A program made the translations under genes and the position numbers. The notes beneath the pieces are model-generated. The model saw only the letters and a program-made list of their open reading frames with translations. It ran no database searches and was not told where the DNA came from. 64,000 nucleotides of DNA from Marsupella aquatica (taxonomy: Eukaryota > Plantae > Marchantiophyta). This document shows positions 3,373 to 42,700 of the stretch, one piece after another. Each line of letters starts with the position of its first letter. The stretch's first letter is position 1. The DNA is taken from the NCBI GenBank assembly GCA_973895155.1, contig OZ316897.1, positions 310,001 through 374,000 on the forward strand, in the 5' to 3' direction.

Positions 3373-4944
3373 GTCGTCACATCCTCGTTTCTACGCCCGT
3401 CACATTCAAAGCGCCAGAATCCAATGCTGCTCCTACCAAAAGAAAGTATATATGGGCTGTGTGACCAGCGTGTGCGAACTGGGTAGTAGACTACCCGTAC
3501 GTGCTCCCACCCCTGCGAGCACGACACTAAGTAATTATTAGATACTTCGACGGCGCAGTTCAGAGTCGCAGCACCAAATCACATTTATTTTCGATCCTCT
3601 GTTTAATTCTCAACTCCCTCGGTTTTCCTCGGTACAGAGCAAGTTCAATTTGGGGGACAGGAAGCTCGATTACAGAAACTCCTCCCGTGATGATTGCAAG
3701 AGGCGTGAGAGCGCATCGTAGCTTCATTGCAACTCCAACCCGAAACATGCATCTTTCTTCCGAATTTGCGGTGAAAAGAGTTGTACCGTGAATCGTTCAC
3801 CAGGTAGGCAGGTTCAGCGAACAACCTTTCTCGGAAGGCCCGCAGTATGGACGTATTGGTTGGTTACGCTGATGACGTGGGAATCAAGTCTCCCGCCATT
3901 TGTTTGCTCTGATGAACTTGACCGAAAGAGAGTAACAAAGTTGTCTGAAGGTTGACAGAGATTCCGAAGGAGAACACGTTGCCGCAGACAGTACACAGGA
4001 CGGCGAGACGTCTTTCCTTGCCTTGGAGATCAAAGGACAAGATAATTATACGAAATTGACACAACACGAGTACAGGAGGTCGAAATCGAGTGTTTCCAGG
4101 GAATCCAAGAAGGCAAGAAGGGAGGACCGAGACGGCTTTGAAGCACAGACAGAGCAGTCTTTCGTCGAACCACGGAAGCTCGGAGGACACCATATAGGCG
4201 ACTAGCAGATCTTTCCGGCCTGCAGAATGATTGCAGCGCGGCGTTCAACTCTGAAGAGCTGCGCTGTATCACCATAACTGGAGGCTGTACAAGCGGAGAC
4301 GGAATATTGGACCACCAAATTTATGTAAGCTGTCACAATAATGTCTCGATGCCATAGGACTTAAATTTGAACGATAGGTTGACGTGGAGACCACACCATC
4401 GGAATATGTTTGGAATCTACCCAGTATCTTGATAGGAGCCCATGCACCCCAGTGGCCCTGTATGAAGTGCACTTTTATATTATTTTAAGATGAACTAAAC
4501 TTATTCAATGGTCGAATTTTTCAGAAAGAATAAGTCGAACATAAACTTTCTAGATTATTCATATTGGACTGCTTTTGCAAAGAGAGGACAATCTAAAGCC
4601 GTCGTTGGAGAGTTTCTCCCAAATAAGATTTGGGAATATTCAAAGATGTGTTTCCATTAGGATGCATTTTCATTGGGATGATGGATCTCCATCCCAAGTC
4701 TTTTGTTCAATGAGGGTGATATGGATTTTAGGAAAAGCCTGAATTGTCAACAAGCTTTTTAATATCCCATCCAAGTGCAAGGTTCCCATGGAGACCTCAT
4801 CCCAAATTATGGCCAATATGCGAGCTCCTGAATTAAAGGCTCTCGTTCCTTTTCGGGACCCAAAAATTTTCAAGTTCATTCCAAAACCCAGCATATAGCA
4901 TCTTGGAACATGCTTTATTTTTTGTCTTGTAGTGATTTGAAAGT

Positions 4945-14203: not shown

Positions 14204-16106
14204 CAATCGAGTTCCTGGGCGCGTGCCAAGTCCAAGCTTTGCGAAATGTGGTCAAGCTGTCTTTAGGGCACGAAGTTTGTCGGGCCGCGAGAGAGTGCAA
14301 TGCGAGACGAGACGAGAACAGAAGAGAACAGTAGAGACGAGAAGAGAAGAGACGAAACGAGATGAAATCAAAATCAAACCAAAGGAGGCGAGACGACGGT
14401 CGGAGGAACGCAGGACTACCGAGAAGCTACCGAAAAGCTACAGAACAATCGCTCGCTAGATTTCGATAAACCCGGGCAACGATGGCGAGCCCATGTCATG
14501 TACTCTTGTTTCGGCTGATCCACCGAACAGATTTGTCTTTCGTATTTGGCAGAATCAGCAAGGCGTGTGTTATGAGGGTACAACCAAGAAGTGAAAACCT
14601 CAGTTTCTAAATGTCAAAATTAAGGCATTTCTGGTAAAAAAATTTAAAATCTCACCAGTGGTTAAGGTTTATTAAAACCTGTCACATGGGGTGTTTTCTA
14701 CAGAGTAGTAATGCAGTGTTTCCAGGGAATTGCCGGCTACAATGCCAAGCCAGAACACTCTCCTAGTGTGTAGTGTAAACTCTTGTTCACGGGGCATTGT
14801 GGGCTATTATACCCTGAACAAGGCTAGCTTCACCTCAAGTTTTGAGGGGTTATTATCAAATTTCCTACATTGCTATATGGTGAACACCTTCTACCTATTT
14901 TGTCTTATTAGAAATATGAGTTCTGAATTTTCTTTTAAATCTGGCCTAGTGTATCATTTCACTTTGTATTGGTTTGAATTTAACAAATTATCTAACCCCT
15001 TTAATTATTTCAAGTTCGTGATTTGATATGTTTTATTGTGATAGCTTATCATGTATTTGATGAGATTTTTTTTCTGCCATTCATTCTCTATTGCACGAGA
15101 TGGTCAGACTCACCAGGATGCACCCAGTACAAACACCAGAGATGCCCTGTAGGTTATATGTCCATTGGTGAAAAATTTTCCAAACCTTATGGTTTAGAGG
15201 TTAACAGGTGTCACCTAAATAGTGAATCTTTCAATAGGGCCTAAAAGTAGAGTACAAAGCTAGAGTATAAAGCTAACATACTTCTCTGTCAAACACAATA
15301 TACTATACGGACCTCTAGGGTACATCTTACAAGTTATGTACTTGTTTTTCACCTAAAAAGTGCGGTAAAGGTGTGCATTTTTATTCTATTTATTTATTTG
15401 ATTCACTGTTTTAATGCATTTGAATACTATGCTATAATTGCTATTTGATAAACTATTTAAACTAATTGGTAGTTTACGAAGGATACAATTGACATTATTG
15501 TCAATAAGTTAAAATAGCTGTGTCTTAGAATGAACATGCTATATCAACAATAATACTCTGGTAGCACTAGCATAATACACTAAACCACTACTGTCCATTT
15601 GTAATGGGAAAGTGTCCAAGACACCTTTCACATTTCACTCACTTTTCTCCGTGGCCGTGCCAGTTTGTTCTACAAATTCATGAAAAAATACTTTTAATGG
15701 TTGCTATGGGTAAAACATAGCTTTGAAGAGGCAGGTGTGCTTTAAAGGCCAAAGACATTTATATTTTTACTAATTCAGGTGAAAGTTGAGGAGAATTGAT
15801 AATGAGCCCATCCAAATCTTGATAGTGCATTCTTCTCTGATAATGCCCTCAAAATCACAAAGAGAAACCTTAGAAAGCACTCTTTAGGGTCTGTAGTTCA
15901 AAGTAGGAACTTCAACATCATGCAATTCGAAAAACAGACTTCTTAAGAAAAAACTTAACATGAACTCCCTCATGATATACAAACCCTTCAAACCAACCTC
16001 GTGGAAATTGTGATTCATAGCCTGGGACACCACTTCCAATCTATGAAGAGTTTGAACAACATCTTGAATGGGTAGAAGGTGCTCTCCCTCTAGCATATTT
16101 GGAGAA

Positions 16107-16620
16107 CAGCTTTTTACTAAACTACCCCCCAAACTTGTAGTAATTACAATACTGCCCCCAAAACTAATATATTTAGTATACTGCCCCCCTAACCGTATCC
16201 CGTCACTTTTAACCCAAGTACTTGACCACTGCTGCATTCCGATTGGCCAAAAAGTAACCATAGTCGAGATCCTAAGCCCGGCCTTACCACAGTATCATCT
16301 TCGCCCGGGCCCAAGGCGCAACCGTGCTGTGTTCGGAAGTGCCGCGCTCGCATTGGGGATTGGGGCCTGAAGTGGGACAGAGGGATCAGAACCCCACTCA
16401 GACCCTCCGCTTATCGGGCTCCGTGAAGGCGCCTCATTTTCTTTGGGACAAACGACACCCAAAACGTTGTTTTTTAAGCCTCGCCAGTTCACAGTCGATT
16501 GCAAGTGAACGTGAAAGGCAGGCGCAGCGCTGGGAGGCAGGGATCGGGGCACATTACGAGCCATTTTTGGAGAGAGGGATTCAGGCAGAAGGCAAGCCAT
16601 TTTGGGAGTGAGGGATCGGG
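16107..16620 (+). repeat. Left TIR of the MULE (~514 bp; weaker similarity to ~16715)
   Basis: Reverse complement of 29752-30265. The spurious ORF pairs 16295-16600/29772-30077 and 16324-16611/29761-30048 translate almost identically. Confidence 0.95.
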
Positions 16621-17040
16621 GCAGGAGGCATGCATTTTCGGGAGTGAGGGATTGGGACGGAAAGGCTAGCTATTTCAAGAGGGATTGGGCCCTAAAGTTG
16701 AGCAAGAGACGGAGGGACTCGAGTTGCATGCCTCGAGTTGAAGGCCTTGTTCCCGGCCTTGTTGCCTCAAGTTTTTGGGCCTCGTTTTGATTGGGAAAAA
16801 CTGCAGCCAAACAGCTTATTTTTGAAGGTGTGCTGCTCAATCCTGATTGTTCAACGTCAAGGGCAGGCGCTAGGAGAGAGAGAGAGATCGTGTGAAGAGG
16901 CACAGGTGTGATCTCAGAATGCACATTGAATGCACATTCAACTCTCTTTTGCTTGGCATGCATTTCATTCTCATTTTTTGTTGCCTGTGAATTCAGTCTG
17001 TAATGTCTGTGTTGCAGAGTACATTGCAAGTCGAGCAGAC

Positions 17041-18387
17041 ATGGAATTGAAGACTGGGGAAACATTTGAGGTTGGAAAGACCTTAAGAAATTAATTGTTG
17101 ATGAAGGTGTATCCTCTGAGAGACTCCTAGTTACCCACAAGAAGGATGAGTATAAATGGAAGTTAAGATGCAAACAGATTAGTTGTCCGTGGAGGTTGAG
17201 AGCTACAAAAAAAGCCAGAACCGAGACAATTACCATCACAAAAACTTGCTTGAATCACACTTGTGAGCGGGCTGACCATTACAAGAGGCGAATGCACAGC
17301 AGTTCAGATAGGCTTGCAGACAAAATTATGGACTTAATTCTCCAAAATTGTCAAACTCGACCTTCCACCATCCGAGATACTGCTCAGGCATGGGTGCATC
17401 CTGACATAAAATACCATACAGCCTACGCTGCCAAGCATCGATGTTTGAAGCGCCTTGATGGAGATGAACCCTAAACCCTAAACCCTAAACACTGCCATCA
17501 TATACTTGAGAGAGATCCGACAGCAATTGCTAAGTATAGGGCACCGGTGGCCATCTTGACATGTTATTTGTCTGCCCTTCAGCAGCTAGGGAAGCTTTCC
17601 GTCACTATAGGCTGATGATTGCATTAGATGGGACTCACACAAGATGCATGTACCCTGGAATTCTCCTGCTTACCACAACATTGGATGCCAATAACACAGT
17701 TGTATTGCTTGCATACTCTTGGGTACCTTCAGAAAACGAGGCTAATTGGCTGGTCTTCTTGAATTTGCTAAAAGAAGGTATTCCAGACTTGTGTCAACCT
17801 GGAGTGGTTTTTATTTCTGATCGGGAGAAAGGCCTAACTGATGGGGTGCCAGAAGTTTTTCCTTGTGGACATCCTGCCTACTGTACATGGCATCTTGGGG
17901 AGAATGTACACAAGCATTATGGCAAGGAGATCCGTAAGTTGTTTGAAGCTTTACCATATGCTGTCACTCCTGCCAAATACGAAGGTCGCTTGAAGCAAAT
18001 TGAAGAGAAGAACAAAGCAACAGCAGAATACATTCGAAGGACAGCTGACCCAAAGTTCTACTCTCGAGCTTACTTCCCATCTAAAAGGTCAATCAACTAA
18101 TACATGACCTTTCTAAGTATCTACTGCTAGTTGCATATGCATATAGTGGTTCAATTCTAGGTGTTTTGCATAATACTACTTGCCCTTGATGTGCTTGCAT
18201 TCTTGTTATAGGTGGGGACATGAAACCTCGCAGCAAGTAGAGAGTAGTAACAGGGCACTAAAACCTCAGTGACAAGAGGTGACATTGAATATGTCATGCC
18301 AGATCTGGGATTACATGATGGTAAAGTTTTTTGAGAAGCGAGAGCTTGCTGGTAGTATTACGACTCCATTTCCACCAAACATCATGG
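17041..18387 (+). pseudogene. MuDR/MULE transposase, 5' part (disrupted)
   Basis: Zinc-finger-like RCKQISCPWRL..NHTC; catalytic core IALDGTH (D), FISDREKGL (D), YCTWHL (CxxH); intron ~18088-18210; then ETSQQVESSN (E). Frameshift near 17070, telomere-repeat insertion at ~17467, in-frame stop near 18269; cut by the retroelement at 18387. Confidence 0.9.
17467..17490. repeat. Interstitial plant telomere-type repeat (CCCTAAA)x3 inside the transposase CDS
   Basis: AACCCTAAACCCTAAACCCTAAAC directly after codons RLDGDE; it creates the stop at 17472-17474. Confidence 0.85.
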
Positions 18388-18716
18388 TGTCAACCATTCT
18401 GAGTAGTGTAGTAGTATATCGTGCTATTAGAGTATGTATGTTTGGTATGAGTGCTATTGGAGCCGATAAGGTTCTGTCAGGTTTGTGTGAGAGGGTACTT
18501 CTCACTTGTGAGGCATTGAAAGGTCATCTTTCAATGTTGAGCCTTGGAGAGAGAGGAGCTTGAGTGTGGCTATGCTGGCTGTGAGCTCCGCTTGTGTAAC
18601 GTGGATTCCTTGAGTAGTGCAAGGTGCGTTGGCTTGACATACGTGTGTGATCGGATCGGTGCGGGATCGATGGGGTATTGTTGACCGAGATCGTTGTGCC
18701 GATTGTATGGAGATTA
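18388..18716 (+). repeat. Repeat A1 (5' terminal repeat, 329 bp)
   Basis: Matches 27486-27815 with 1 indel and 3 C/T differences by my comparison. Confidence 0.95.
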
Positions 18717-18727
18717 CATTGAAAGAT
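18716..18727 (+). promoter_or_regulatory. Putative self-priming primer-binding site
   Basis: ACATTGAAAGAT at the A1/internal boundary is the exact reverse complement of ATCTTTCAATGT (18526-18537) inside A1. No TGG-starting tRNA PBS is present here. Confidence 0.6.
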
Positions 18728-18986
18728 CACATTCAAAATCTGTTGTACGGACTGTGCGGATAGAAGTTCGATTGATTGAGTTGTCGACGGTTCGTGGTAG
18801 CTCGGATCGTGTGTTGTTATCGAACAGATCGTTGGTATCTTGACCTGTATCATTGTTGTCCGATCGGCCTGCTTCCCGATCGATGTACAGATCTGTGATT
18901 GGTGACAGGTTTTGAGTTGGAGGTCGATTGATGATTCGTGGAGGAAAGCGAATGTTGAGTAGATGTTGGACAGTGGAAGTCGATCC

Positions 18987-19076
18987 GTGAGGCTTCAGAT
19001 CCGATTGCCGGCTACTGTGAGGCTTCAGATCTGATTGTTGGCTACTGTGGGGCTTCAGATCTGATTGTCGGCTATT
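18987..19076 (+). repeat. Three 30-bp tandem repeats in the retroelement leader
   Basis: GTG(A/G)GGCTTCAGATC(C/T)GATTG(C/T)(C/T)GGCTA(C/T)T x3. Confidence 0.85.
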
Positions 19077-19314
19077 GTTGGACGATGTTGGCAAGGCGCA
19101 GGTGAAGCGATGGCTCTTTTCCTGAAGGAACGGAGCTGCCAATGCCCCGTGCGATGGTATCATCGTTTCAGTGAAAGAAACGAGGGTCAAAGGTGTTGAA
19201 TCAAGCTGCTGCCAATTCTGTGGAAGGGCTGCATTTTTCATGAAGGAAATCGACAGTTTTCGGGAGCTTTTCGTGAAAGAAGTAGTCGTTTTTGGGGTCA
19301 GGTGTGAGGCGCAC

Positions 19315-19520
19315 GAGGTCACCCATCCCAAAAGTGCTCGCGCGAGGCGACGCGTGAGGTCACCCATCCCAAAAATGCTCCCAACCGCGAGCGCAAAGTC
19401 ACCCATCGCAAGCGCAGGCAGGCGCGAGGTCACCCATCCCGGGGCTATTCCGGGCCGTGAGCGCGAGGGGAGGCACAAGGTCGAACGCGAGGAGATCACC
19501 CATCCCAGGGCTATTCCCAG
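19315..19520 (+). repeat. Dispersed GTCACCCATCCC-like motif (x5) in the CpG-rich leader
   Basis: Motif copies at ~19315, 19356, 19397, 19426 and 19493. Confidence 0.75.
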
Positions 19521-20076
19521 CCGCGAGCACTTAACTGACAAGTTCTCATCCCACCTTGTGTACACACAAGCTTTGACAACTTGTTGTTTAGATTCAAGCG
19601 CCAGGGGGCTTTATACACTTCCCGGTTTGTTTAGAGGCCTATTCTAGGCCAAATCAGAGGTTGTTTTGGGGTTTTTGATACTTCTGAGTCCATCTAGACT
19701 CATAGATTGAACCAATTTTGCCTTGGTTCTCATCTACAACATTGGAGTGCCATTGTGAAGCTTATTATGAAGGCTCTTCCTTGAACCTTATGCACATTGT
19801 CATATTGATTTGCATTTGCTTTTGTGTGGAGAGTTGAATGGTATCCATTCTTGTTTCTGGATCCTCTTCACACATGTTTCCTATTTATGCGCCATGTTAG
19901 TTTCGTGTGGGCGCTTGATTCCATAGGAGTGATTCGGGTTTGCAACTGGACATTCTAGTGTGCTGTGTATTTCTCTCTTGGTGATGTTGGAGTGATGCCC
20001 AACACACCATGGTGAGTGCTTGTGGTGCTGACAGGGATAGATTGCCCTTAGGGTTAGCACATAGATTAGGTTAGGG

Positions 20077-22856
20077 TTGGTCACCACGGATTCTTCTGGT
20101 GCTGCTGGATTACCCGATGGACGACGGACCAGTTTCACTCGGAGTGGGGCACAATTTCGGCCAGCGGCATTGGTAGCAGTCAGCAGTGCAGCTTCATACA
20201 GTGATTCTGATGAGGACTCAGTGACCAGTTCTCCTCATCATCAGGTGGTTGCACCTTTGTTGTGGGATATGGACGAGATATACGGGGCTACAAAGGGCCC
20301 ATGACGATACTCTGGTGCAGTTGGCACAATTGATCTGGATGACTTCATGCAGGAGTTTGATACGTGGTGCAATATGCAGACATTGCATAACGTCACGTTG
20401 TTTACCCCTTTCATGGCATGGAAGGGATTATTCCAGCATTTGGAGGGGCCACCCATGGATGACTACCATGAGTTTCGGAAGGCTCATTTGGTTGAGATTG
20501 AGGGATGGAGGCAGCATTGGTCGCCTAATTACGTATCCATCACCTATGGCACTAGTGCGGCTACCCAACCCATTGCCACAGCTGCTGCTTCTTCTAGCAG
20601 CACTAGCCAGAGTGGCACACCATCCACCAGCAGCACTCCAGCAGCATCCACCACTACTCCTGCCGGTGTGATTGTGACAGGAACTGGAGTTGCGCCAGCA
20701 TTTAATCCTGTGGTGGAATTCTTTGAGGTACTGAAGCAGAACTATCAGGGTGTGAGAACTGATAAGTTGAAGGGTCTTCAGAATTCCAACGCAAGACTGG
20801 AGAGAGCCTACGTGAGGCATACACACGTATGCGCAGATTGATCACTGTCACCAAGGGAGTGACAGAGGCTCAGGCAGTCCAATTTTGGTATGCAATTCTG
20901 AACAGAGAATTGCGACGCAGAGTGAGAGATGTCACTCTACTTAGGGATGTAGATCCCACATTAGCAGTTGTTTTCACCCTTTCTGAGCGCATTGAGCTCA
21001 ATATGGTGAATGAGAAGGTGGTGACTTCCGGATTTGCCAAGGAAGCACCAAAGACTGCATCTACATCCACACCACAGCCTACCGCACGGAAGAGCCAGAG
21101 GGAGAAGCCTACTGCACGAGAGTCTACCAGCCAGAGACATGTGCCCTCTTATGCTGGACAGCAGTCAGGATGTTGGACCTGTGGTGGGGATCATGCACAG
21201 AGATATTTTCCAGATCATAGAGGATCAGGGGGAGCATCAGCACCTGATCAGCGACAGTGTGATCACTGTGGAGCTCCTGGACACACCAAGGATAGGTGTT
21301 TCTCACTCCACCCTGAGTTACGGAGAGGAGGATCCCGTACACATGATCAGGGAAGAGGAGGAGGAGGTAGAGGTGGTGGATGTGGTCATGGCATGCCACA
21401 TGCAGGGAGACAGGAAGGTGACGCTGCCCCTGCTGTAACCATAGATCCAAAGGATGCTAAGATTGCTCAATTGGAGCAACAACTAGCTGCCATGGCTAGT
21501 TCCCAGGTGAGACCTAATTCTGGTGATGGGGCATCTACATCCTATGGACCTTCCACATCCCATGGTCCTTCCACATCTTATGGAGCTGATGGAGACCTTG
21601 CCACCATGGGATTCATGTGTGGCACTGCACATATTGATGCATCAGCAGCTTTGACACGTGGGGCAGCCAAAGCTCTTGAGCCCCGAGGAGCAGTAGTGGA
21701 GTTAGATCCACAAAGGGGGGATGCACGTCGGCAGACACAGCTTCCTCAGTCTTTTACATTGTCAGAGACAGTTCAGACTGCCTCTATGAACCCGGTTCGG
21801 ACAAACCCTGATGTGGGTAAGTTGGCAGAATCAGGTAGTGATGTAGCAGGGATGACAGGTACCTTGCTGGGGGCGGCTATTGCCATAGTACACACCCCAT
21901 TATTTTCAGCGACAGACATGCTGAACTTGGGAGTTGGTCCTGCAGAAGTGTTCAGATTGGCAGCTACACTCTGTGAGGACACTCCAGTAGTTGCTTCCCA
22001 TGCAAAAGCAACTTGCAGTGTTGATGCAGTGAAGACCATGCCACCTACTGCTACTAGTGAGACATGGCATGCAGCAGCAGCGAGGTTGGTGGATTTACCA
22101 GCACGCCCTGCATTTGAGAGGACTAGGTTTAAACCTAGTGTTGTGTCATTGGATAATCGGAGTGGTATCTTCCGATTAGTTGGACCTTTTGGAGCAGTAT
22201 ACCAGCCAGAGAGAGTGTTACTGGATACTGGTGCTCAGCCCTTGATGTTGGGGAAGTCTGCCATACGTGGATTGGGATTGCGTCTAGAGGATTTGGAGGA
22301 TTGTCCCTTTCCCATTCAAACTTCATTGGGGGGACCTACACCTACACAGCATATCACCAGGAGACCACTTGATTTGAGGATTCAGGAAGGTCATACCACA
22401 GATAGCTCACAGATACAGACGCGAGCTATTCTGACAAAGGCAGAGCCATATGATGTGTTGGTGGGATGTACAGTGCTCTACCCCATGGGATTTATTCTTG
22501 ATTTTTGGGAGGAATCAGTGTCATATAGACCTGATTGGCAGTCAGGAGATGCTCGATTGAGAAAATTGCCAGTGAGATTTAGTGGACCTGTGGGAGGCCC
22601 TAAATCCACACCATTGTCTTTGGCAGCATTCAGTGGTGTAATTGCTGGACTTGATGATTTGATTGAGGGTAATGCGCATGCAGCCGATGTTCCACCATTG
22701 GAGGAGTCTCATGAGGAGCACATCATGCGAGGATTACCTGTTGGCAGTGTTGTGCCACCAGTGTGGGGCACTGCACAGGCCTTGCCACAGGCAGCAGCAC
22801 GATTGGTACATGATGCATGGCATCATGCTTTTACACCACAGTCAGGAGCAGAGTAG
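20077..22856 (+). pseudogene. Retroelement Gag + zinc knuckles + aspartic protease (5' part of a single polyprotein)
   Basis: Gag motif LQEFQRKTGESLREAYTRMRRL after correcting a 1-nt frameshift near 20780; knuckles CWTCGGDH (degenerate) and CDHCGAPGHTKDRC; protease VLLDTGAQ and YDVLVG. In-frame stops at 20302 and 22854. Start codon uncertain. Confidence 0.88.
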
Positions 22857-22874
22857 TCTCTTGCAGATGGACCT

Positions 22875-24065
22875 GTGACTCTTTCACCATTGGATACCAC
22901 TCCTATTGCTTGGCAGTATCCACCGGAGGGTATTTATTTGTTGGATCTTTTTGGTGGGATTAGCACTGGATTGGCTGCTGTTCTTCAGGCAGGAATTCCT
23001 GTGCGTTGTTATTTGTATGTGGAGACAGATGAGACAACACAAAGGGTCTCATTGCGACATGTGGCTATGTTGGTGGATAGATATCCACAGTTGCTGCCAG
23101 TGGATGCTGTTCGTGGTTATCAGCATGCACTACCTGCTGATGTTTCATTGTTGGGGGCGGATCATCTACATCGTGTTGGCCCCATTAATTTGGTGATTGC
23201 TGGTTGGCCATGTCAGGGCCAATCTAGAGCTGGCATTGGGCATGGACTTCATGATCCACGCTCTGCATTGTTTTGGGAGATGTTACGGGTGCTGCGTCAT
23301 CTCCAGCTACATCAAACACAGTCTCCAACATACATTTTGGAGAATGTGCCATTGTTAGGTGATGATCGTAGTCGGATTGTTGCAAGTGTTCACCAAGTGA
23401 GGTCTTGGATTGGACCTGCTGTGTTATTGGATGTTGCACGTGTGGGTTCTCGTGCACATCGTCCACGCTTGTGGTGGACTAATTTGATCCCATGTGAGGT
23501 GCTGAAGCGCGCATTTGACAGCATTCCACGCTCACCAGCCTTAGTGGTGGATGATATTTTGGATCCAGGGCGTCGTGCACAGGGTGTGACCCAACCTGAT
23601 AGGCCTCCATTGGCAATGGTCCATGCAGTTGGGTGCCCACGTTGTGCATTACCCACTCTTGTAAGCCACTCTACTTCATATGCATTCAGAGCAGGTGGCC
23701 CTGGACTTGTATGGGACACAGCTCTCCAGCAGTTAGTGGAGCCTACTGCTGATGAGAGAGAGCGTGCTATGGGATTTTTGACTGGCACCACTGCAGCTGC
23801 CTCTGTGTCAGAGGGTTTGCGGCGCCAGGTTCTTGGTCAAGCAATGGATTTGAATTGTTTGACTTGGATTATCAGCTTGGGAGTAGCTGAACAGTTGCGG
23901 ATGCGCTCTGCCGGAATTACTGATTGTCCCTTGGTGAGCTTGCGGTCCACTGAGATAGTATTGACCATAGCTGGGGGCGAGCAGACAGTCCATGGACCTA
24001 TGACAGGATTGGCGGCTGGACAGATTGTTGAGCAGGAAGGGACTGCTCAATCTACTGCTAAATAG
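22875..24065 (+). CDS. C5 cytosine DNA methyltransferase domain (DNMT3/DRM-like motifs, unpermuted order), in frame between protease and RT
   Basis: Motif I LDLFGGISTG (F at 22950); II YVETD; IV LVIAGWPCQG (catalytic Cys 23211-23213); V LFWEMLRVL; VI ILENV (23340-23348); VIII AHRPRLWWTNL; IX ERERAMGF; X RQVLGQAM. Same reading frame as ORFs 20829-22856 and 24111/24399. Confidence 0.95.
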   Translation: MTLSPLDTTPIAWQYPPEGIYLLDLFGGISTGLAAVLQAGIPVRCYLYVETDETTQRVSLRHVAMLVDRYPQLLPVDAVRGYQHALPADVSLLGADHLHRVGPINLVIAGWPCQGQSRAGIGHGLHDPRSALFWEMLRVLRHLQLHQTQSPTYILENVPLLGDDRSRIVASVHQVRSWIGPAVLLDVARVGSRAHRPRLWWTNLIPCEVLKRAFDSIPRSPALVVDDILDPGRRAQGVTQPDRPPLAMVHAVGCPRCALPTLVSHSTSYAFRAGGPGLVWDTALQQLVEPTADERERAMGFLTGTTAAASVSEGLRRQVLGQAMDLNCLTWIISLGVAEQLRMRSAGITDCPLVSLRSTEIVLTIAGGEQTVHGPMTGLAAGQIVEQEGTAQSTAK

Positions 24066-24110
24066 CAATCATCGGCTATCTCTTCTACCCTACAAAGAGA
24101 TATTAGGGAT

Positions 24111-25840
24111 TTGGTGGAGAGTTGGGAACCACAGCTTGGCCCTAAGTTAACAGGGGAGGAGAGACGTCGCATGCATCGATTCCTGAAGAGTTATTGGAAT
24201 TGTTTTGCATTCAGCATGAAGAATTTGGGGACATTGAAGGGCCCTCGTATTCAGATTGAATTGGCTAGTGATGCGCCAATCTTTCGTAGACCATACCGTT
24301 ATAGTGATATGGAGAGAGCTCTGATTCAAAGCAGAACTCAAGATTTGTTGGAGGCTGGATTGGTGGAGATTTCATAAGGGGAGTATGCATCTGCCACAGT
24401 GATGCCAGCCAAGAAAGATGTGCATGGCAATTACACAGATAGGCGCATGTGTGGTGATTACAGACCTATTAATCGCCAGACAAAATCTGATCGATATGCC
24501 ATGCCCACACCTGAGGAGATCTTTGATGTTGTGGGGCATGCAAAGGTTTTCAGTTCATTGGATCTGAGGGCAGGATACCATCAGCTTCCAATTAGGCATG
24601 CTGACAGGTCCAAGACAACATTCTGGGGGATTGATTCTTATGGCAAAGATCGTTTGTATCAATGGTTATTCTCACCATTTGGGTTGAAGAATGCACCAGC
24701 TGAGTTCCAGAGAGTCATGGATCGAATCCTTGTAGGTTTGGATTTTGTCAGATGTTATATTGATGATATTTTGGTCTATTCTTCTACTGTGGAAGAACAT
24801 CAGCAACACTTGCAGACTGTGTTGGAGAGATTGAGAGCACATGGGTTGAAGCTCCATCCTAGCAAGTGTAAGTTCTTCCAAGACCAGATTGAGTATTTGG
24901 GCCACACCATATACCCAGGGGGATTGGGTGTACAGCAGACTAAAGTGGAGGCCATTACACAGATTCCTTGTCCTACTGATGTGAGTAGAGTTCGTGCATT
25001 CTTGGGATTGGCGAGCTACTACAGGAGGTATGTTAAAGGATTTAGCCAGCTTGCTAAACCTTTGACCATACTCACTAAGTTGGATCAGGAATGGATTTGG
25101 GGTGATGACAAGGAGCATGCCTTTCAGGAGTTGAAGCAAAGGTTGGCATCATCCCCTATTTTGAGAAGACCCATTTCAGGCAGACCATTTCAGCTACACA
25201 CTGATTGGAGTGGAGTAGGACTTGGAGCAGTGCTGACTCAGAAGGATGATGAGGGGAATGAGTTTGTTGTGGCTTATGCCAGTAGATCAAACAATTCAGC
25301 AGAGGCTAAGTATAGCTCTTATGAGGGAGAGTGTTTGGCAGCAGTGTGGGCTGTTGCACACTTTCGTTGCTACTTGTTTGGTAACCCCTCACCTTGATCA
25401 CTGATCATCAGCCTCTTAAGTGGTTAATGGAGTCTGACAAGCTTACAGGGAAGCTTGCACGATGGGCATTGTTGTTACAGGAGTATGATTTCCAGGTGGT
25501 GCATAGGCCTGGAAAAGTGAACTTGGATGCAGATGGATTAAGCCGCAATCCATGTACCAGTCAGCAGGATGAGACTGCAGCCAGATGGCATGATGAGTCA
25601 GATAAGGAGATGGTGCCAGGATGGCATGCATCTGACTTTCTTTGTTGGGTGCCAGCATACAGTGGATCTGTGGACTCTACCTCATTAGATGGAGTGGATG
25701 ATGAGTCTTCAGATGTGGATGTTGGTGAGGTAACTTCTGGACAGCAAGATATTCACAATGATGTGAGAGTGTTGGAATATCTGCGCAATAGTTCTATTGT
25801 TGGCAGTGTTGATGCCAAGGAACGTGACAGGGTTCTATAG
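24111..25840 (+). pseudogene. Reverse transcriptase + RNase H
   Basis: RMCGDYRPIN, LDLRAGYHQL, PFGLKNAPAEFQ, YIDDILVYS; RNase H LHTDWS, YEGECLA, TDHQPL, DADGLSR. Stop at 24375, 1-nt frameshift near 25390, stop at 25838. Confidence 0.97.
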
Positions 25841-25876
25841 AGAGCCAAGAGGTTTCGATGGGAGGGAAACCATCTT

Positions 25877-26830
25877 TTGAGAGTACTGCATGATGGTAGG
25901 ATGTTGGTGGTACCAAAACCATCACAACGAGTACATTTGGTGCGACATGCGCACGAGGAGTTGGGTCACTTTGGTGTGAAGCGCACTTACAGCTTGCTGC
26001 AGACACAGTATTGGTGGCGTGGTATGCACACTCATGTCCAGCAGTTGATAGCTAAGTGTGTGGTATGTGACAGAGTGAGAGCATCATTTAATGCTCCCAC
26101 TCCCCAGTTGCACCCGTTACCGATCATGGGTTTGGGATATCGTTGGAGTTTGGATTTTGCTGGTCCATTACCTCTTACCCAACGTCATAATCGGTATGTT
26201 TTGGTCATGGTGGAGCACTTCTCCAAGTGGATTGAGCTAGTGGCGTTGCCAGATAAAGCCAGTGGAGGAGTTGCTGCTACATTTTTGGATCGTGTACTCA
26301 GTCATTTTGGAGCACCAGCTGAGGTGTTGACTGATCAGGGAACTGAGTTCCGTGGAGAGTTTGAGAGTTTGTGTGAACAAGCTCTGATTGATCATTGCAC
26401 TACCTCTTGTGATCATCCTGAGGCAGATGGATTAGCTGAGAGAGTTGTGCAAACTGTGAAGAGAGGATGGCAAAAGTATCTGGGAGATTGGGATCTCCAG
26501 CTACCTTGGTTAGTTATGGGCTACCAGTTCAGTCGGCAAGCATCACTTGCATCCTTCTCACCCTACTTTTTGCTCTATGGTAGAGAGCCAGATTTGCCAG
26601 CAGCTATTCGTCGTCATGCTGCACCAGTTGTGAACTTGGATGATCCTGATGTTTGGGTCAAGGTGTGTTCAGAGAGAGCACGGGTATTTCATAGAGTGAT
26701 GTCCATGGCTTTTGACAACCTTGCCATTGCCCAACATCGTGATACTTTGAGGTATGCCACTATTTGTGGAGGAGGTTACCGTGCAAGCATTCGACGATTT
26801 CATCCTGGTGATTATGTTTATTTGCAGTAG
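25877..26830 (+). pseudogene. DDE integrase (rve) with HHCC zinc finger
   Basis: HEELGH...CVVC; SLDFAGP (D), LTDQGTEF (D), GLAERVVQTVK (E). In-frame stop at 26828. Confidence 0.96.
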
Positions 26831-26839
26831 ACAGCACCC

Positions 26840-27172
26840 ATGACACTTGATGTGACCGCAGGCCGGACAATCTTACGTGTGCGTGAAGTGTTGCCTTTTG
26901 GTGTCCTGATGTTGGAGGGACGCGATGGTATGGTTTGGAAGGATCATGTGCGCAACTGTGCACCATGTCACCTTCCCAACATTGATGGTACAGTAGATCC
27001 AAGCTTGGCACATGTTCGTGCTGGCTTGAAATGTATGTTGTGTGGATCTGCTCAAGGAGCAGCTACTATGTTGATTTGTGATAAGTGTTCTAGAGGATGG
27101 CACATGTCATGTTTGACACCACCATTGCAAGTGATTCCTAGTGGATCATGGTTGTGTCCTCAGCGTCGGTGA
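26840..27172 (+). pseudogene. Integrase C-terminal tail ending in a PHD finger
   Basis: CMLC..MLICDKCSRGWHMSCLTPPLQVIPSGSWLCPQR fits C4HC3 with the last Cys changed to Arg (CGT). In frame with the integrase across one TAG. Confidence 0.9.
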
Positions 27173-27336
27173 AGCCGACTAGTTATCATTTGTGTTCTCT
27201 TGGCAGATATGGATTGCAGGTAGGTGATCGATGAGGCTCACTTGCACCCGGCCTCCTGATCTTCACACCTAAAAAGGTGTATATCAACCTTGTAGAACTC
27301 ATGGCTAGCTAGAGTTAGGGGACCTTACTCCCAGCT

Positions 27337-27343
27337 AGGGGGG
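27337..27343 (+). promoter_or_regulatory. Short polypurine tract-like run preceding repeat B1
   Basis: AGGGGGG followed by CGAT and then the TGTGGG start of B1 at 27348. Confidence 0.5.
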
Positions 27344-27347
27344 CGAT

Positions 27348-27952
27348 TGTGGGTTTTGGACATGTGTGGACATGAGTTCCACTTGTATTCCATTCTCTTG
27401 TATTTGTGATGTGACAGTGTGACTATGTCTGGATGTATGTGACAAGCGATGTATGTTGTGTAGCGATATGTATGCGCACGACAGCTGTCACACCATTCTG
27501 AGTAGTGTAGTAGTATATCGTGCTATTAGAGTATGTACGTTTGGTATGAGTGCTATTGGAGCCGATAAGGTTCTGTCAGGTTTGTGTGAGAGGGTACTTC
27601 TCACTTGTGAGGCATTGAAAGGTCATCTTTCAATGTTGAGCCTTGGAGAGAGAGGAGCTTGAGTGTGGCTATGCTGGTTGTGAGCTCTGCTTGTGTAACG
27701 TGGATTCCTTGAGTAGTGCAAGGTGCGTTGGCTTGACATACGTGTGTGATCGGATCGGTGCGGGATCGATGGGGTATTGTTGACCGAGATCGTTGTGCCG
27801 ATTGTATGGAGATTATTGTGGGTTTTGGACATGTGTGGACATGAGTTCCACTTGTATTCCATTCTCTTGTATTTGTGATGTGGCAGTGTGACTATGTCTG
27901 GATGTATGTAACAAGCGATGTATGTTGTGCAGCGATATGTATGCGCACGACA
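27348..27952 (+). repeat. 3' repeat block B1-GC-A2-T-B2
   Basis: B1 27348-27483 and B2 27817-27952 (136 bp each, 3 transitions apart); A2 27486-27815; B1/A2 junction GACA-GC-TGTC. Confidence 0.95.
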
Positions 27953-28600
27953 ATGGAAGCGCTAAATGAGGTGGAAGTTAAAGCTAGTCGTCTCATTGCA
28001 CATCCTTCCCATGATACTGAGGTCAGAATCACTAATGACTGCAATAGACAGTACATAGTGAACCTTGAGTCACCTTGGTCATGCAGTTGTGGTGATTTCC
28101 AGGATACATTGTTGCCTTGTATACATGCTTGGCGAGCAATTACTAGACTACGCAAACGTCACTATGATTTTGTCAGTCCCTACTACAGCACAGAGTCATA
28201 CAAAAATATTTATGACTCTCATCTACCAGCTTTGATAAGAGATGGGCTAATTCCAAATCCATATTGTGGGCCTCCACTGAAGAAAAGACGCAAAGGTCGT
28301 CTGACAGAGCGGATTCGGACTCGCTTTGATGATGAGGAGGTATGTCGGTTGCCACGAAAGTGTGGGGTTTGTGGAGAAAGAGGACATGACTGCAGAAATT
28401 GTCCAGACCAAAATGAATTGCAAGTCGTGCAAAATTTGGAAGAAGGGAGTGAATTGGGAGACATGGTGGAAGAACATTGTGTTGCTGAAGAGGAGGCCAA
28501 TCAAACTGTACAAGAGTGGAGTTCACAGGAGAGCATCGCCCTTTGGAACTTTTTCTCAGTTGCTAGCTACCATGGAGAGTCAACCATCAACATTTACAAC
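27953..28600 (+). pseudogene. MULE transposase, 3' part (SWIM finger and zinc knuckle)
   Basis: MEALNEVEVK..YIVNLESPWSCSCGDFQDTLLPCIHAW (SWIM), VSPYYSTESYKNIY, PPLKKRRKGR, RKCGVCGERGHDCRNC. The ORF runs to 28852; the true 3' end is uncertain. Confidence 0.9.
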
Positions 28601-28923
28601 TCCTTAGTTGGCCCAAAATGGTTCTATTTTAGTGTTCTCAATGTTATATTTAGTTTAGTTTCACAGTCCGATTTACTTTCGGACTTCAGTATACAACTTT
28701 TTGTATCCAGGTCTGTACGATGCTCAAATTTTGTAACTTGTTACAAGTTGATGGCAATTCAATTGAATTTTTTTGGCCACAGTTCATGTTCAGACACATA
28801 CAATGTAACAATTCACACTGGACAGAAGCACAATAGCACATTTTATTCATAGATTGGGCACTTGGGCATTACAGCAAGTGTGATTCATGAACACAATTGG
28901 AAGGCTATGTAATCAATGTTGCA

Positions 28924-29460
28924 CTAACATTTAGTCCGCCTAATACGCATCAATCCATCCTGCAAATATGCCAAAGCTTCCTGTCGAGTCTTGAAACTCT
29001 TAAACTTGCATCCGCTGAAGCCATGGACCTGGTGTTGACATGCCTCCCATGTATCATAGATGCCTGGTGTATACCCACACACAACTGCATAGTATCGTCG
29101 CCTCTGCCCAGGATGCCATGATTGAATCTGTTCATTTGGCAAATGCCTCGACTTTGCATCCATATCCTGAGTCACAGGTTCCTGTGTTGCAGTATGTGGG
29201 AGCACAGGCTGCACCGGCTGCACAATTGGCATACACAATGCTTCAGTGTCTACCAACTTTGATTGCATTGACATCCGTGGAGGCATTGCTACTGCTACAG
29301 GGGCTGCTTGCTCCCTGGATGATAGCAACCAGACCTGCAATTTGTCTTGGCCGAGCTGCATTGCGTCAGAGACAAGGCAAAAAATGTATCCAAGCACCAC
29401 AAGCAAGGCCCAAATGCATATTGCAAGCACCCTGATAATGGTTCGAGTCCCTGGCACCAT
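28924..29460 (-). CDS. MULE accessory ORF: hydrophobic segment plus RNase H1 N-terminal hybrid-binding (Caulimovirus viroplasmin VI-like) domain
   Basis: RRRYYAVVCGYTPGIYDTWEACQHQVHGFSGCKFKSFKTRQEALAYL (~28960-29105) fits the YAV..G..PG(I/V)Y.TW..C...V.GF.G..FK.F.T..EA..(F/Y) consensus. Upstream IIRVLAICIWALLVVLGYIFCLVS. Likely ATG at 29460; convergent with the transposase. Confidence 0.8.
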   Translation of the reverse strand: MVPGTRTIIRVLAICIWALLVVLGYIFCLVSDAMQLGQDKLQVWLLSSREQAAPVAVAMPPRMSMQSKLVDTEALCMPIVQPVQPVLPHTATQEPVTQDMDAKSRHLPNEQIQSWHPGQRRRYYAVVCGYTPGIYDTWEACQHQVHGFSGCKFKSFKTRQEALAYLQDGLMRIRRTKC

Positions 29461-29751
29461 TGCTTTAATCAATGTCCCTCCCTTGCTAAGCTTTAGGGCC
29501 CAATCTCTCGCTTCCAAATGAGTTGCCTTTCTGCCCCAAGCCCTCTGTCCTGAAAATGCTCGCCTCCTGCCCCGACCCTCTCTCCTGAAATAGCTCACCT
29601 CTGCCCCGATCCTTGCTCACAAAATGGCTCGCCTTCTGCCTGAATCCCCCTCTCCAAAAATGGCTTGCAGTGTGCTCCGATCCTTACTCCTGAAAATGCT
29701 CACCTCTGCCGGCCCTGATCCCTCTCTCGTTCAATCCCCTTCTCCTTCTGT

Positions 29752-30265
29752 CCCGATCCCTCACTCCCAAAATGGCTCGCCTTCTGCATGAATCCCCCTC
29801 TCCAAAAATGGCTCGCAATGTGCCCCGATCCCTGCCTCCCAGCGCTGCGCCTGCCTTTCAAACTCACTTGCAATCGACTGTGAACTGGCAAGGCTTAAAA
29901 AACGACGTTTTGGGTGTCGTTTCTCCCAAAGAAAACGAGGCGCCTTCACAGAGCCCGATAAGCGGAGGGTCCGAGTGGGGTTCTGATCCCTTTGTCCCAC
30001 TTCAGGCCCCAATCCCCAACGCGAGCGCGGCACTTCCGAACGCAGCACGGTTGCGCCTTGGGCCTGGGCAAAGATGATACTGCGGTAAAGCTGGGCTTAG
30101 GATCTCGACTATGGTTACTTTTTGGCCAATCGGAATGCAGCAGTGGTCAAGTACTTGGGTTAAAAGTAACGGGATACGGTTAGGGGGGCAGTATACTAAA
30201 TGTATTAGTTTTGGGGGCAGTATTGTAATTACTACCAGTTTGGGGGGTAGTTTAGTAAAAAGCTG
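29752..30265 (-). repeat. Right TIR of the MULE, preceded by ~30-bp subterminal repeats (29490-29751)
   Basis: Reverse complement of 16107-16620. CCCGATCCCTC..AAAATG(G)CTC(G/A)CCT(T)CTG units are repeated inward. Confidence 0.95.
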
Positions 30266-31449
30266 ATTTGGAGAATTGCCAGCATTACAAGAAAGAGTGG
30301 TCTTTGTTGCTAGTTTACTCTGGGAAACAAATAGCAAATACAAAAAAAGGGTGGGGTAAATTGCGTACTTGAGCTGAAACCCCCACATACTCAAACCCTA
30401 GTTTTTCTGAAAGGTATCTCAAATGAAATTCTTGAGTTTATTATTTCAAGTGTTTTGAAGTCCTCCACAATTGTATTAGACATTAGCTCTTGTATATGTC
30501 TGACAAATGTCTGATACCTATTGTTAGAAATGAATTAAAACCTACTTTGAGTACTTCTTGATAGCAATAGCATTGGACACATGAGACATCACAAATTTTG
30601 CAAAACTTGCTCTCAGGCATTTTCTGCAATTATAAAATGATGCACACAAAATGCTTTACTAGAACTAGTTTCCAATTTGCCTTGCAATAATTTTTTATTG
30701 TGTCTGATGATGTGTCAAATTTTAGGAACTCAGTGTATGGGATCAAGACTCTCATTTACGGACATTGCATTGGGAAGACTAAAATGGGTTGAATCAGAAT
30801 ATGTCCCAACAGCCTTATGCCTAGATTTATAGTTGGATTCCTACAAACCAACGATGACTATTATACTTAAATGTGGTCGCTTTTGTAAAGGCATAACCAT
30901 GATTCAGATGATCACCTGGATTTTAACCCCTTTTATGATGGTCTAGTACAAAACTTCTCCACAAACCAACAACAAGCAGATAAGAATTATTCTTGGTCCA
31001 TTTATTGGCATGGTGATGCTAGTTACTTAGGTAAAACTTGAAACTAATTTAACACTTGGTCGAAAGAGTAGCAAAGTGATAAATATTTGTAAAAGTGTGG
31101 CCAACCCAAATATTGAATACTTTAGTGGCAACTTAATAAGGAATGACTTAGGTGAGTAAACTGTTTATTTCCTTCAAATCATGACTACCCATCAAAAGCA
31201 TATTAAGGTAATATTCCTTCTCAATACAGAATGAGACAACAGGTCACCTTAATTCATTATCTCACTACAAATATGAATTCCCAGGGATTTTGTTTTTCAT
31301 CAACAGCCCGGCTAGCTCTGTAGACTCATGAACAAAATCAAATTTGAGAAGCCATTGAAATGGGCAGATAAAAAAAACCTCCTGCCGTCATGCTTTTTCA
31401 AGATCCCAAGTTTATTCTACATTTGATGTTTCCATTGCCTTATTACAGC

Positions 31450-39754: not shown

Positions 39755-42700
39755 CTACAAATTTGTAGTGGAAGTACTTCCTCTCGTTGGACCCTGCAGT
39801 TGCCTTCGGACGAGATTGGCGTAAATTCCGTTTCTATCTAGGAGTTCTTCATGGGTACCTCTCTCGGCAATAATACCGTCATTAACGACTGCCACAATGT
39901 CAGCACTTTGAACAGTTGAAAGACGGTGAGCAATGACCAACACCGTCCGCCCATGCATTAGCCGATCCATAGCGTCCTGTGGGAGGAATTCAATTCATAA
40001 GAAAGCTTAATCACATGCAGCAGTTCGAGAGGGATTTGAGAGCGACATAAAACCAAGGGTACCAAGTTGTGGATATAGAACTTTCGGTGTTGTGCAACAA
40101 TGACTCGTGACGGAAAGCAAGGAGCTCACCTGCACAAGATATTCGCTTTCCGCATCCAATGCACTGGTGGCCTCATCCAACAGGAGCACCTTTGGATCCA
40201 TTAGTAGAGCCCTAGCAATCGCTATCCGCTGCTTTTGACCACCTGAAAGTCTAACACCCCGCTCGCCCACATTGGTTTGATAACCCTCCGGAAATCTGCT
40301 AATAAACTCATGAGCATTGGACATTTTCTGCACATGATCCCCTTAAGATATCAGGCCTTCGGTTGTAGATGGGATCTTCGAAAAGAACAAGACGAACCCC
40401 CCCCAAAAAAGAAAAAAGAAAAACAAAAGCTTCTTCGGTGGGAGGACAATGACGGATGCCTTGAAATAGAGTTCGAGTTTAATTTCAGCGTCTCATCAAG
40501 GAGCTCGGTGAGTGTTGTTCCCACTTCGTTAAGACTGGATGGGATCCCGACTCGCGAACCGGCATAGAATTGCATGTACGAGAAAGGAAAACAACAGTTC
40601 GCGAAAATAATTATTACCGACACTCGCTCGATTTCTGATTCATCAAGTAAATTATGTAGTCCATACGATATATTCTCTGCTATGGTGCAGTTGAATAGCG
40701 TCGGTTCTTGGCTCACAATACTGATCTGCAATTCCATCATTTTTATCAATGATCACATTCACATAGCTTAGTCTACTGAAGCCAATATGATATCGTGGTT
40801 GCTGTCAGACTACTTCACTAGAAACAGACATTCTAGAAACAGACATGTAGGTCGTAAAAACAAACAGAGGAGTTAAGTTCGCCTGCTTAAGAGCCATGAT
40901 TCTGTAAGAACAAAACAAGTTTGTTGTGCGTATTAGACTGAAGATAGTTCGTGATACTGCAAGAAAGTCGACGAAGAGGGTATAATTCATGAGTTTCTCA
41001 ACTGAGAACGAGTCAAATTTATTCGAGAACGAGATTGCGGCATACCTTCTCATGAAGATGGCGATGGTCTATATCAATCAGAGACACTCCGTTGAAGTAA
41101 ATGTTGCCCTTTTGAGGATCATAAAATCTTTCCACCAAATTCGCAATGGTAGTCTGCAAATCAATGAGTCCGAAATCGGAGCCTGAGTCAAATTGGGAAG
41201 GAGGAGCATTTATTGACAAACGAAACCGAAAGGTTACTGCGGTCACAACAACCATTGAAAAGTTTGCTTACTTTGCCTCCACCACTGGGCCCAACGAGAG
41301 CAACCTTTGCTCCGGGTTTCAGCTCAAGATTTACTCCCTACAGCCGATTGATCATCAGGTTATTGTAGTCTTCGACGATCAAAGCAAGCATCGAATAACT
41401 TGTCCCCTTCCAAGGTAAGCCCCGAAAATAAACATGTAAGATACCTCAACTCTCCATAGGCATTTGCAGGGAATCATAAGAACTAGAGGCAAAGTGAGCA
41501 GTGCAATCTGACGGTCATTTCAAGTCTGCTCGTTAGATGCAAGAGAGTGAGTGCTTCTGTAAAAGAATTACACCTAACCTTCCTATTTCCAAGCTCACTG
41601 AACAACGAATAACAATTGATTCGTAAACGTGTAACGATATGTAAGCAAAATTTAAACTTCCTACTTCCTAGCTCACTCAACATCCAGAACCAAGATGATC
41701 CAAAATAAAGAATACAAAATTTAAGCGATACACAATTGCCAGATTCAGGTTACAATGGATCTAGAATTCAAGTTATAATTGACCTAAATTGTTTTTCCAA
41801 AATCTCAGTAAAACAAAAGATGGATTGATGTCTAGAACTCGATCTCTGCCATTTTATAAGTTCGGCATATCCATATGATATAAGGACCCCGATATCAGTG
41901 ACATTTTCTATGAAGAAATTATACTTAACCCCGACCAAACCTGAAGCAGGCTCATAAACCACTATTTAAAGGGGTCATATGGCAAATGATCTCCATACAT
42001 ATCCCAGGGGGGGAAACTGACCCTTGTACTTTCCTAAGAAGAATATTGTAACTTACTTTCAGAACCCAGTCCTTCGGTCGAGATGGATAAGCAAACCACA
42101 CATCCTCAATCCGAACTTCCGCGTCTGAAGAGTCCCTGTAGACAAAGAGACAAAATACGGACACGTTAGAAAGCTACTTGAATTGAAAGAAATCTCGACT
42201 TGCCTCCACCTCTGGTAAAAGAGTAGCATCTGCTCTGGAAGAAAGTTACACCGGGCCCCTAGTTCAAATTAGAAGAGACTTTTGTTAGTGACATTACTTG
42301 CGGCGGGAGGGGGCAGTAATGCTGATAAGGTTTCAAACGATTGAAGTCAAATAAATCTGGAGGAAAGATGTGACAAAAGACCCATTCGAAAACAAACTAT
42401 CCACACTTCACCTCCGACACTTGACGAAAACGAATTTAAAGAGTTGCAACACCAATTGAACGAACGCCATCTTAGATAAACTACAAATCCAACCAAAGAG
42501 GAGGGACCAGAGAATGTAGCAACAACAAAGGCTATAGACTTGGAATAAGTTGCTAAAACGCATGTACACTTAGCTTTTGTATAGAAGCTTACTTGACAGG
42601 AAGCTCATCGCCAGGACTGGGCATGCTTGACATCCGGTCCAGGAGCTGGAAAACACGCTGGCTGGCACCAACTGCCTTCATTGCCGTCGTATAAATACCC

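Follow-up and report, generated by a model that had tools for sequence, protein, structure and literature searches.

A dead Ty3/gypsy retrotransposon of Marsupella aquatica with a DNMT3-like methyltransferase in its ORF1 and permuted terminal repeats

The window analyzed here, a 64,000-nucleotide stretch of Marsupella aquatica DNA, contains a Ty3/gypsy element of 9565 bp (18388–27952) that starts with TGTCA and ends with CGACA (TG...CA ends). The element is inserted within the transposase of a Mutator-like DNA transposon, splitting the MULE frame so that it breaks off at ...TPFPPNI on the left and resumes with MEALNEVEVKA on the right. The coding order is Gag, protease, methyltransferase, reverse transcriptase (RT), RNase H, DDE integrase and PHD finger (Table 1). 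Pfam searches of Pol returned RVT_1 (E 2e-33), RT_RNaseH_2 (1e-32), rve (4e-14), Integrase_H2C2 (9e-17) and PHD (5e-11); the match to Asp_protease_2 was weak (E 0.011). Gag and protease form a single frame in relatives such as the Marchantia protein P0123. From 20766 onward one frame runs through the Gag C-terminus, the protease, the TAG at 22854, the methyltransferase, the TAG at 24063 and into RT. No second copy of the element was found in the 64-kb window.

Table 1. Features of the element and its insertion site (positions in the window)
Feature	Position	Strand	Remarks
Mutator-like DNA transposon, host of the insertion	16090–30282	+	539-nt inverted repeats, 94%; MULE 7e-12; SWIM 3e-6
Left target-site duplication	18384–18387	+	ATGG, 4 bp; repeated at 27953–27956
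Repeat A1	18388–18715	+	starts TGTCA; 3 substitutions and 1 indel relative to A2 over 329 columns; probably 3' U3, R and U5
Predicted self-primer, putative RNA 5' end	18526–18537	+	12 nt, exact complement of 18716–18727
Primer-binding site, self-priming type	18716–18727	+	immediately behind A1
Gag and aspartic protease	20269–22853	+	DTG at 22224; stop at 20302, frameshift near 20770
TAG private to this copy	22854–22856	+	decay; sense codon elsewhere
DNMT3-like C5-methyltransferase and ORF1 tail	22857–24065	+	core ~22911–23900; 402-codon frame, no introns
Conserved stop, readthrough-type context	24063–24071	+	TAG CAA TCA (CAR-YYA); family-wide
Pol: RT, RNase H, integrase, C-terminal PHD finger	24066–27172	+	YIDD 24756; D 26153, D 26333, E 26438; 3 stops, 1 frameshift
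Polypurine-tract-like AGCTAGGGGGGCG	27333–27345	+	immediately ahead of B1
Repeat B1	27346–27483	+	ends GACA; differs from B2 at 3 of 138 nt; probably 5' part of U3
Palindrome GACA-GC-TGTC	27480–27489	.	predicted integrase cutting site; both element ends joined by GC
Repeat A2	27486–27814	+	match to A1
Repeat B2	27815–27952	+	ends CGACA; A2–B2 seam is the predicted circle junction
Right target-site duplication	27953–27956	+	ATGG; copy of 18384–18387

A preliminary description of this locus, made from the sequence alone, had the methyltransferase separated from its in-frame neighbors only by single TAG codons (22854 and 24063). Besides the TAG at 22854, the copy has further premature stops at 20302, 24375, 25838 and 26828 and frameshifts near 20770 and 25390. 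The copy is therefore dead. The A and B repeats have diverged by only 4/329 and 3/138 columns, and the insertion is thus fairly recent. Thousands of short contigs per single run aligned to the stretch (4737 in run X1), which points to an abundant element family, with the proviso that depth is not copy number.

Other features of the window were also recorded. The Mutator-like element has a second frame on the − strand (28924–29616), in which a Cauli_VI (RNase H1 N-terminal) domain was matched (E 1.7e-19), and its transposase contains a short stretch of CCCTAAA repeats resembling plant telomeres (17470–17491). A short degenerate repeat array occupies 19311–19530 in the long 5' leader of the gypsy element. 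Elsewhere the window contains pieces of plant-type genes. There are a Makorin-like frame that has CCCH fingers as well as a RING finger (52744–53784), a G-rich tandem repeat (61900–62450; GC skew 0.53) and, on the − strand, exon-like parts of genes for a purple acid phosphatase (1999–3390) and an ABC transporter (40007–43251).

All of the C5-methyltransferase motifs I, IV (PC), VI (ENV), VIII (RxR), IX and X were located in the methyltransferase frame, in unpermuted order, unlike DRM. DLFGGISTG lies at 22944, LVIAGWPCQ at 23190 with the catalytic Cys at 23211, the ENV Glu at 23340, AHRPRLWWTNL (motif VIII RxR) at 23454, ERERAMGF at 23754 and RRQVLGQAMD at 23820. The motif order, catalytic residues and positions given in the preliminary description were thus confirmed in frame, and the HMM search it proposed gave a match to PF00145 (DNA_methylase) above the cut-off (E 8e-10, 39.1 bits versus 22). 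Its claim of likeness to the DNMT3 family was borne out as well. DNMT3A was the top match in a phmmer search of the PDB (E 1.7e-9) and the best match of a family profile (3.8e-24), ahead of DRM-type entries (2.9e-13 to 9e-11), DNMT2 (9e-8) and M.HhaI (4e-7). An AlphaFold model of the domain (mean pLDDT 80, pTM 0.82) was submitted to Foldseek, and DNMT3A/B/C accounted for 36 of the 36 matches listed (best E 1e-18).

The best match in sequence and fold is the catalytic domain of mammalian DNMT3A/B, with unpermuted motifs in both, although identity is only ~22% and the target-recognition region is longer in the element. No PWWP or ADD domain was found by Pfam search of the element frames. The linkers on either side of the methyltransferase were modeled at low confidence, which is compatible with protease sites without proving them. 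As judged from these comparisons, the domain is a C5 cytosine methyltransferase of DNMT3-like type with a complete set of catalytic residues, and activity is predicted.

The preliminary description had also argued against a passively captured host gene, and the domain indeed proved to be a family trait, with 185 + 68 homologues, retained residues and purifying selection. Among named proteins, those nearest to it come from Calypogeia, Marchantia, Riccia and Sphagnum (57–74% in the best matches); the element family is likely one of bryophytes. Among near-full relatives the catalytic Cys is kept in 71/74, the ENV Glu in 74/74 and the two motif VIII Arg in 71/74 and 72/74. Selection was assessed on 18 hand-picked pairs, with dS near saturation between subfamilies. 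In nine between-subfamily pairs dN/dS, a check proposed in the preliminary description, was 0.07–0.20; four further pairs were saturated, and the pair L037–L038 gave 0.13 at a dS of 0.26. Four pairs of decayed copies gave 0.44–0.65 for the domain, similar to their own RT (0.31–0.55). By this measure the methyltransferase is under purifying selection between subfamilies.

Trees were built as quick IQ-TREE runs with no outgroup, the domain tree holding element domains only. Of the 87 domains in this tree, 52 formed a clade (support 98) that takes in the window and the other stop-bearing loci. In a second clade of 24 rows (support 99) the domain is placed between RNase H and integrase or immediately ahead of integrase. 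Among the remaining 11 rows are forms whose methyltransferase and RT share a frame, the arrangement reported for Klebsormidium. In an RT tree of 31 rows, with no reference RTs, the forms with the order RNase H–methyltransferase–integrase stood apart from the rest (98). The relatives with this order are loci L055–L060 and L063–L066 and proteins P0159, P0161 and P0166–P0170.

The two TAG codons on either side of the methyltransferase had been treated as equivalent separators within one in-frame fusion of protease, methyltransferase and RT. The single, intronless frame stood; the picture of one fusion broken by two like codons did not. At 22854, a base other than that of the TAG, restoring a sense codon, was read in 117,520 of 118,678 depth units in run X1 and 54,886 of 55,196 in X2, and the sense codon was also seen in X5 (56/56) and X6 (1,234/1,393 depth units). 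The protein P0121, 82% identical, runs from protease through methyltransferase uninterrupted, and a crude fixed offset placed a matching stop in 1 of 51 loci. On these sequence comparisons the TAG at 22854 is decay of this dead copy.

The TAG at 24063 is conserved family-wide. No variant of at least 1% was found at 24063–24071 in any of four runs (151, 83, 15 and 17 contigs); scoring covered only the middle of a 76-nt stretch, stop included, and variants were listed only at 24072 and 24075. Ninety loci were screened, of which 39, together with the window, have a methyltransferase followed by an RT start. An in-frame TAG or TAA precedes RT in 39 of these 40 loci (window included), 129–150 nt ahead of it or, in two cases, farther away through an insertion. 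The sole exception, L011, has the region deleted. The stop is followed by CAR-YY in 38/40 loci and by the full CARYYA in six. These loci are redundant, forming 32 groups at 97% identity and six subfamilies at 80% nucleotide identity; counted by subfamily, CAR-YY occurs in 5/6 and CARYYA in 4/6. The largest subfamily (34/40 loci), which resembles the Sphagnum fallax protein P0157 ahead of RT, has CAA-CCC rather than CARYYA in 31/33. L043 reads TAG TAG CCA. Proteins P0121 and P0189 terminate at the position of the conserved stop, and many database proteins end 55–180 residues past the methyltransferase domain. Marchantia and Sphagnum gene models that extend to RT are missing the junction stretch, likely via predicted introns.

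A single polyprotein from Gag to integrase, with the two TAGs equivalent as decay or as leaky codons, would account for the fact that both are lone in-frame TAGs, and single-frame relatives do occur (P0199 and P0201, which run without a stop to the PHD finger). Nevertheless, with 22854 a sense codon in sister copies and 24063 a stop in nearly all loci, this reading is refuted for the clade of the window and is very hard to credit. Since a stop with CAR-YY is conserved ahead of RT, the methyltransferase belongs to the Gag–protease ORF1; ORF1 is Gag–protease–methyltransferase and ends at the conserved stop. UAG-CAR-YYA is described as the tobamovirus readthrough motif, functional with UAA too (PMC3542737). 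The methyltransferase is thus likely made at the level of Gag, with Pol produced by occasional readthrough.

Pol might instead be expressed past a genuine stop by re-initiation or from a spliced RNA, which we consider improbable. The large subfamily has an ATG three codons past the stop and may re-initiate there, L038 and L043 have a Met at codon 5, and a TAG could serve as a splice acceptor. Nevertheless, re-initiation is disfavored in L037 and L081, which have no Met within 60 codons past the stop, and the first Met lies at codon 36 in the window and codon 48 in L005, in both behind the conserved WEP motif. TAA makes up 15 of the 39 conserved stops, and CAR-YY is retained despite unrelated flanks.

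With readthrough as the preferred reading, production at the level of Gag would mean many methyltransferase molecules per particle, and a conserved stop that places the enzyme there would favor a function within the particle. Methylation of cDNA by an element-borne Dnmt was put forward by de Mendoza et al. 2018 (PMC5890265). Most likely, the methyltransferase is packaged with Gag and marks the cDNA within the particle. Alternatively, the complete domain could be mainly a nucleic-acid-binding component of the particle, or could methylate host chromatin rather than its own cDNA; to this we give a minor though real chance. The domain has Gag stoichiometry in one clade and a position between RNase H and integrase in another, so its placement is flexible, and the Klebsormidium domain produced no methylation in yeast, a result its authors call inconclusive (PMC5890265). 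The CG depletion value was 0.29–0.41 in the coding region of the element versus 0.55–0.71 in the flanks. As a sign of self-methylation it was rejected as non-specific, since it ranges from 0.28 to 0.80 across 14 loci and reaches 0.26 in a different gypsy fragment; this spread fits the alternative. Against the alternative stand the near-invariant Cys, Glu and Arg (71–74 of 74 relatives) and the Symbiodinium DIRS-Dnmt3 domains, which are reported to carry out CG de novo methylation in yeast (PMC5890265).

The ends of the element are atypical of Gypsy. The left end has A only, while the right end reads B-GC-A-B, giving the layout A1-internal-B1-GC-A2-B2, which is also found in L044 and L049. The palindrome GACA-GC-TGTC is kept in L006, L044 and L081 and is one letter off in L037. 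Most loci that reach far enough have the same purine tract ahead of B, including the distant L037 and L081. Exact 4-bp duplications flank six of the seven elements for which both ends are available; in the seventh, 3/4 letters agree, and none has 5 bp. Eight loci have a short form that stops at B1, and five continue into A2. The A2–B2 seam is exact in the window and L049 and one letter off in L044. B was absent ahead of A1 in all 17 loci with a whole A1.

The sequence behind A1 is complementary to a site within it over 12, 17, 13 and 16 nt in the window, L044, L081 and L037, lengths reached by 0, 0, 1 and 0 of 2000 shuffles, respectively. These four elements have three unrelated sets of letters at the site, with compensatory letters between L081 and L037; in the window element the pairing is present in the folded RNA prediction. 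L049, L006 and L028 have complementarity of 10–11 nt. Complementarity between the region behind the LTR and an internal LTR site is the signature of Tf1-type self-priming (PMC6317226, PMC4600332). The right arm of a hairpin at 18512–18537 is the self-primer and its left arm repeats the letters of the primer site; L044, L081 and L037 have a similar hairpin. None of the split repeats, the self-primer site, the PHD finger or the 2018 description from Klebsormidium was mentioned in the preliminary description.

In the standard LTR scheme, the primer site and the purine tract set the ends of the cDNA. Because the purine tract precedes B and the self-primer site follows A, the LTR made by reverse transcription would be B-GC-A, and the integrated ends fall at the palindrome inside it. 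The RNA is predicted to start within A1 and to prime itself at the site behind A1, as in Tf1. Plus-strand synthesis from the purine tract before B1 would then yield a linear cDNA with B-GC-A LTRs, the ends of which would be joined into a 2-LTR circle, leaving the A2–B2 seam. On this scheme, B can come after A only by joining of the cDNA ends. Integrase would next cut the upstream palindrome in a staggered manner, after the CA of each strand, to give processed ends, and insertion of the opened circle with a 4-bp duplication would produce the permuted layout A-internal-B-GC-A-B. Cutting at both palindromes, or use of a 1-LTR circle, may give the shorter A-internal-B copies, which are also explicable by recombination between B1 and B2.

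The integrated layout would thus fit an integrase that opens a 2-LTR circle at an internal site. Such circles are usually regarded as dead ends. In foamy virus, integrase is reported to cleave a palindrome in 2-LTR circles to processed ends (PMC1180852), as proposed here; that palindrome is the LTR–LTR seam, whereas the one in the window element lies inside U3, hence the permuted integrated copy. Taken together, a dead Ty3/gypsy copy with a Gag–protease–methyltransferase ORF1, an enzyme made at the level of Gag, Pol by readthrough, self-priming and circle-derived ends is the reading we hold to be reasonably probable.

The split repeats could also be regenerated by template switches on a transcript spanning B2, or arise by rearrangement after insertion, with no ligated 2-LTR circle. 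We judge this unlikely, though it deserves weight. Template switching of this kind has been proposed for PAT/DIRS elements. DIRS elements whose direct repeats are split have this layout (PMC5890265), and exact or near-exact seams suit copying as well as ligation. Nevertheless, no tyrosine recombinase was matched in the element frames scanned by Pfam, where the DDE integrase gave rve and H2C2 matches instead, and the element has 4-bp duplications; the cDNA set by the purine tract and primer site is of ordinary LTR type, with no B after A. In L030, the A–B seam holds 10 nt that match the primer site plus 5 unexplained nt; this one ambiguous insertion resembles a faulty circle junction and is suggestive only. 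A chance rearrangement is disfavored by a layout common to two subfamilies and Klebsormidium.

A Gypsy element with a DNMT3-like domain is already known, namely KnitGypsy-Dnmt3 of Klebsormidium nitens (de Mendoza et al. 2018, PMC5890265). As described there, it shares with the window element an intronless, unrearranged DNMT3-like domain under purifying selection, Gypsy domain content and DIRS-like A-coding-B-A-B repeats. Its methyltransferase lies in the RT/RNase H frame (PMC5890265), whereas in the window family a conserved stop stands between the two; the window family is on this account a variant of KnitGypsy-Dnmt3 and not a member. KnitGypsy-Dnmt3 is from an alga, in contrast to the land-plant sources of the named relatives here, and no Klebsormidium-named protein appeared among the matches of the homologue search. 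The available portion of PMC5890265 makes no mention of a PHD finger, self-priming, a 4-bp duplication or how the repeats might arise, and the comparison is by description only. What appears to be new beyond Klebsormidium is the conserved stop and the end structure, more than the methyltransferase itself.

The window element shares with Ty3/gypsy LTR retrotransposons the order Gag–PR–RT–RNase H–integrase, the DDE integrase, the TG...CA ends and a duplication within the usual 4–6 bp. It departs from them in lacking two whole identical LTRs with the purine tract beside the terminal one, and is thus Gypsy by its proteins and atypical by its ends. The split direct repeats are shared with DIRS/PAT elements. 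SymbioDIRS-Dnmt3, as described in PMC5890265, likewise combines DNMT3-like cargo, A-coding-B-A-B repeats and two domain orders across its relatives, but has a tyrosine recombinase where the window element has a DDE integrase, a protease and 4-bp duplications. A self-priming site in place of a tRNA site is common to the window element and Tcn1 and Tf1/Sushi chromoviruses (PMC6317226, PMC4600332). In contrast to Tf1/Sushi, Tcn1 and Tj1 as described there, the window element has a PHD finger in place of a chromodomain, methyltransferase cargo and permuted LTRs; no chromodomain match was obtained behind the integrase at E up to 0.1 in the Pfam search of the element frames. Membership of Phygy was rejected, as its reported NCGN target preference (PMC6317226) fits 0/7 duplications.

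No description of land-plant Gypsy–DNMT3 elements, their readthrough stop, self-priming or integration route was found in a search of mainly open literature, and the full 2018 account of K. nitens could already include its ends, PHD finger or frames. The available portions of PMC11982613 and PMC8616336 contain nothing on land-plant Gypsy–DNMT3 elements. Methyltransferase-bearing Gypsy elements, described from one alga, are now seen as abundant, diverged families in land plants including the model Marchantia, in which the benefit to a transposon of carrying a methyltransferase can be put to the test. Programs that find LTR elements by structure look for LTR pairs with TG/CA ends and duplications (PMC6317226), so such elements have likely been missed by them, and many "methyltransferase" gene models of Marchantia and Sphagnum are likely pieces of them.

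If the circle route is correct, 2-LTR circles would serve a DDE integrase as a working precursor, which would amount to a new route of replication. The DIRS-like repeats, for which the 2018 description gave no mechanism, would then be explained. Opening of the circle at a U3 palindrome would represent a third integration route, between those of LTR elements and DIRS. A broader proposal is that a self-priming Ty3/gypsy clade extending from algae to bryophytes propagates only through 2-LTR circles, opened by a DDE integrase at the U3 palindrome, and that its bryophyte branch has an active, Gag-level DNMT3-like enzyme methylating the cDNA before insertion, with the PHD finger guiding the choice of site. 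This is conceivable, but we would not lean towards it.

Origins outside eukaryotes were considered and rejected. A search of IMG/VR with the single protein returned no relative, and with an alignment it gave weak matches of 27–44% over short stretches. The one strong GTDB match, L081, carries an entire retrotransposon; this contig and P0022 place the element in assemblies titled as cyanobacterial or Obscuribacterales, in both cases likely because eukaryotic DNA was binned with them. Among the relatives with the domain after RNase H, L058 has 1424 stop-free codons ahead of RT. In a distant Gag–protease–methyltransferase family (P0179, P0180 and P0203), the ORF ends 13 residues past the domain, which may be an independent instance of this ORF split.
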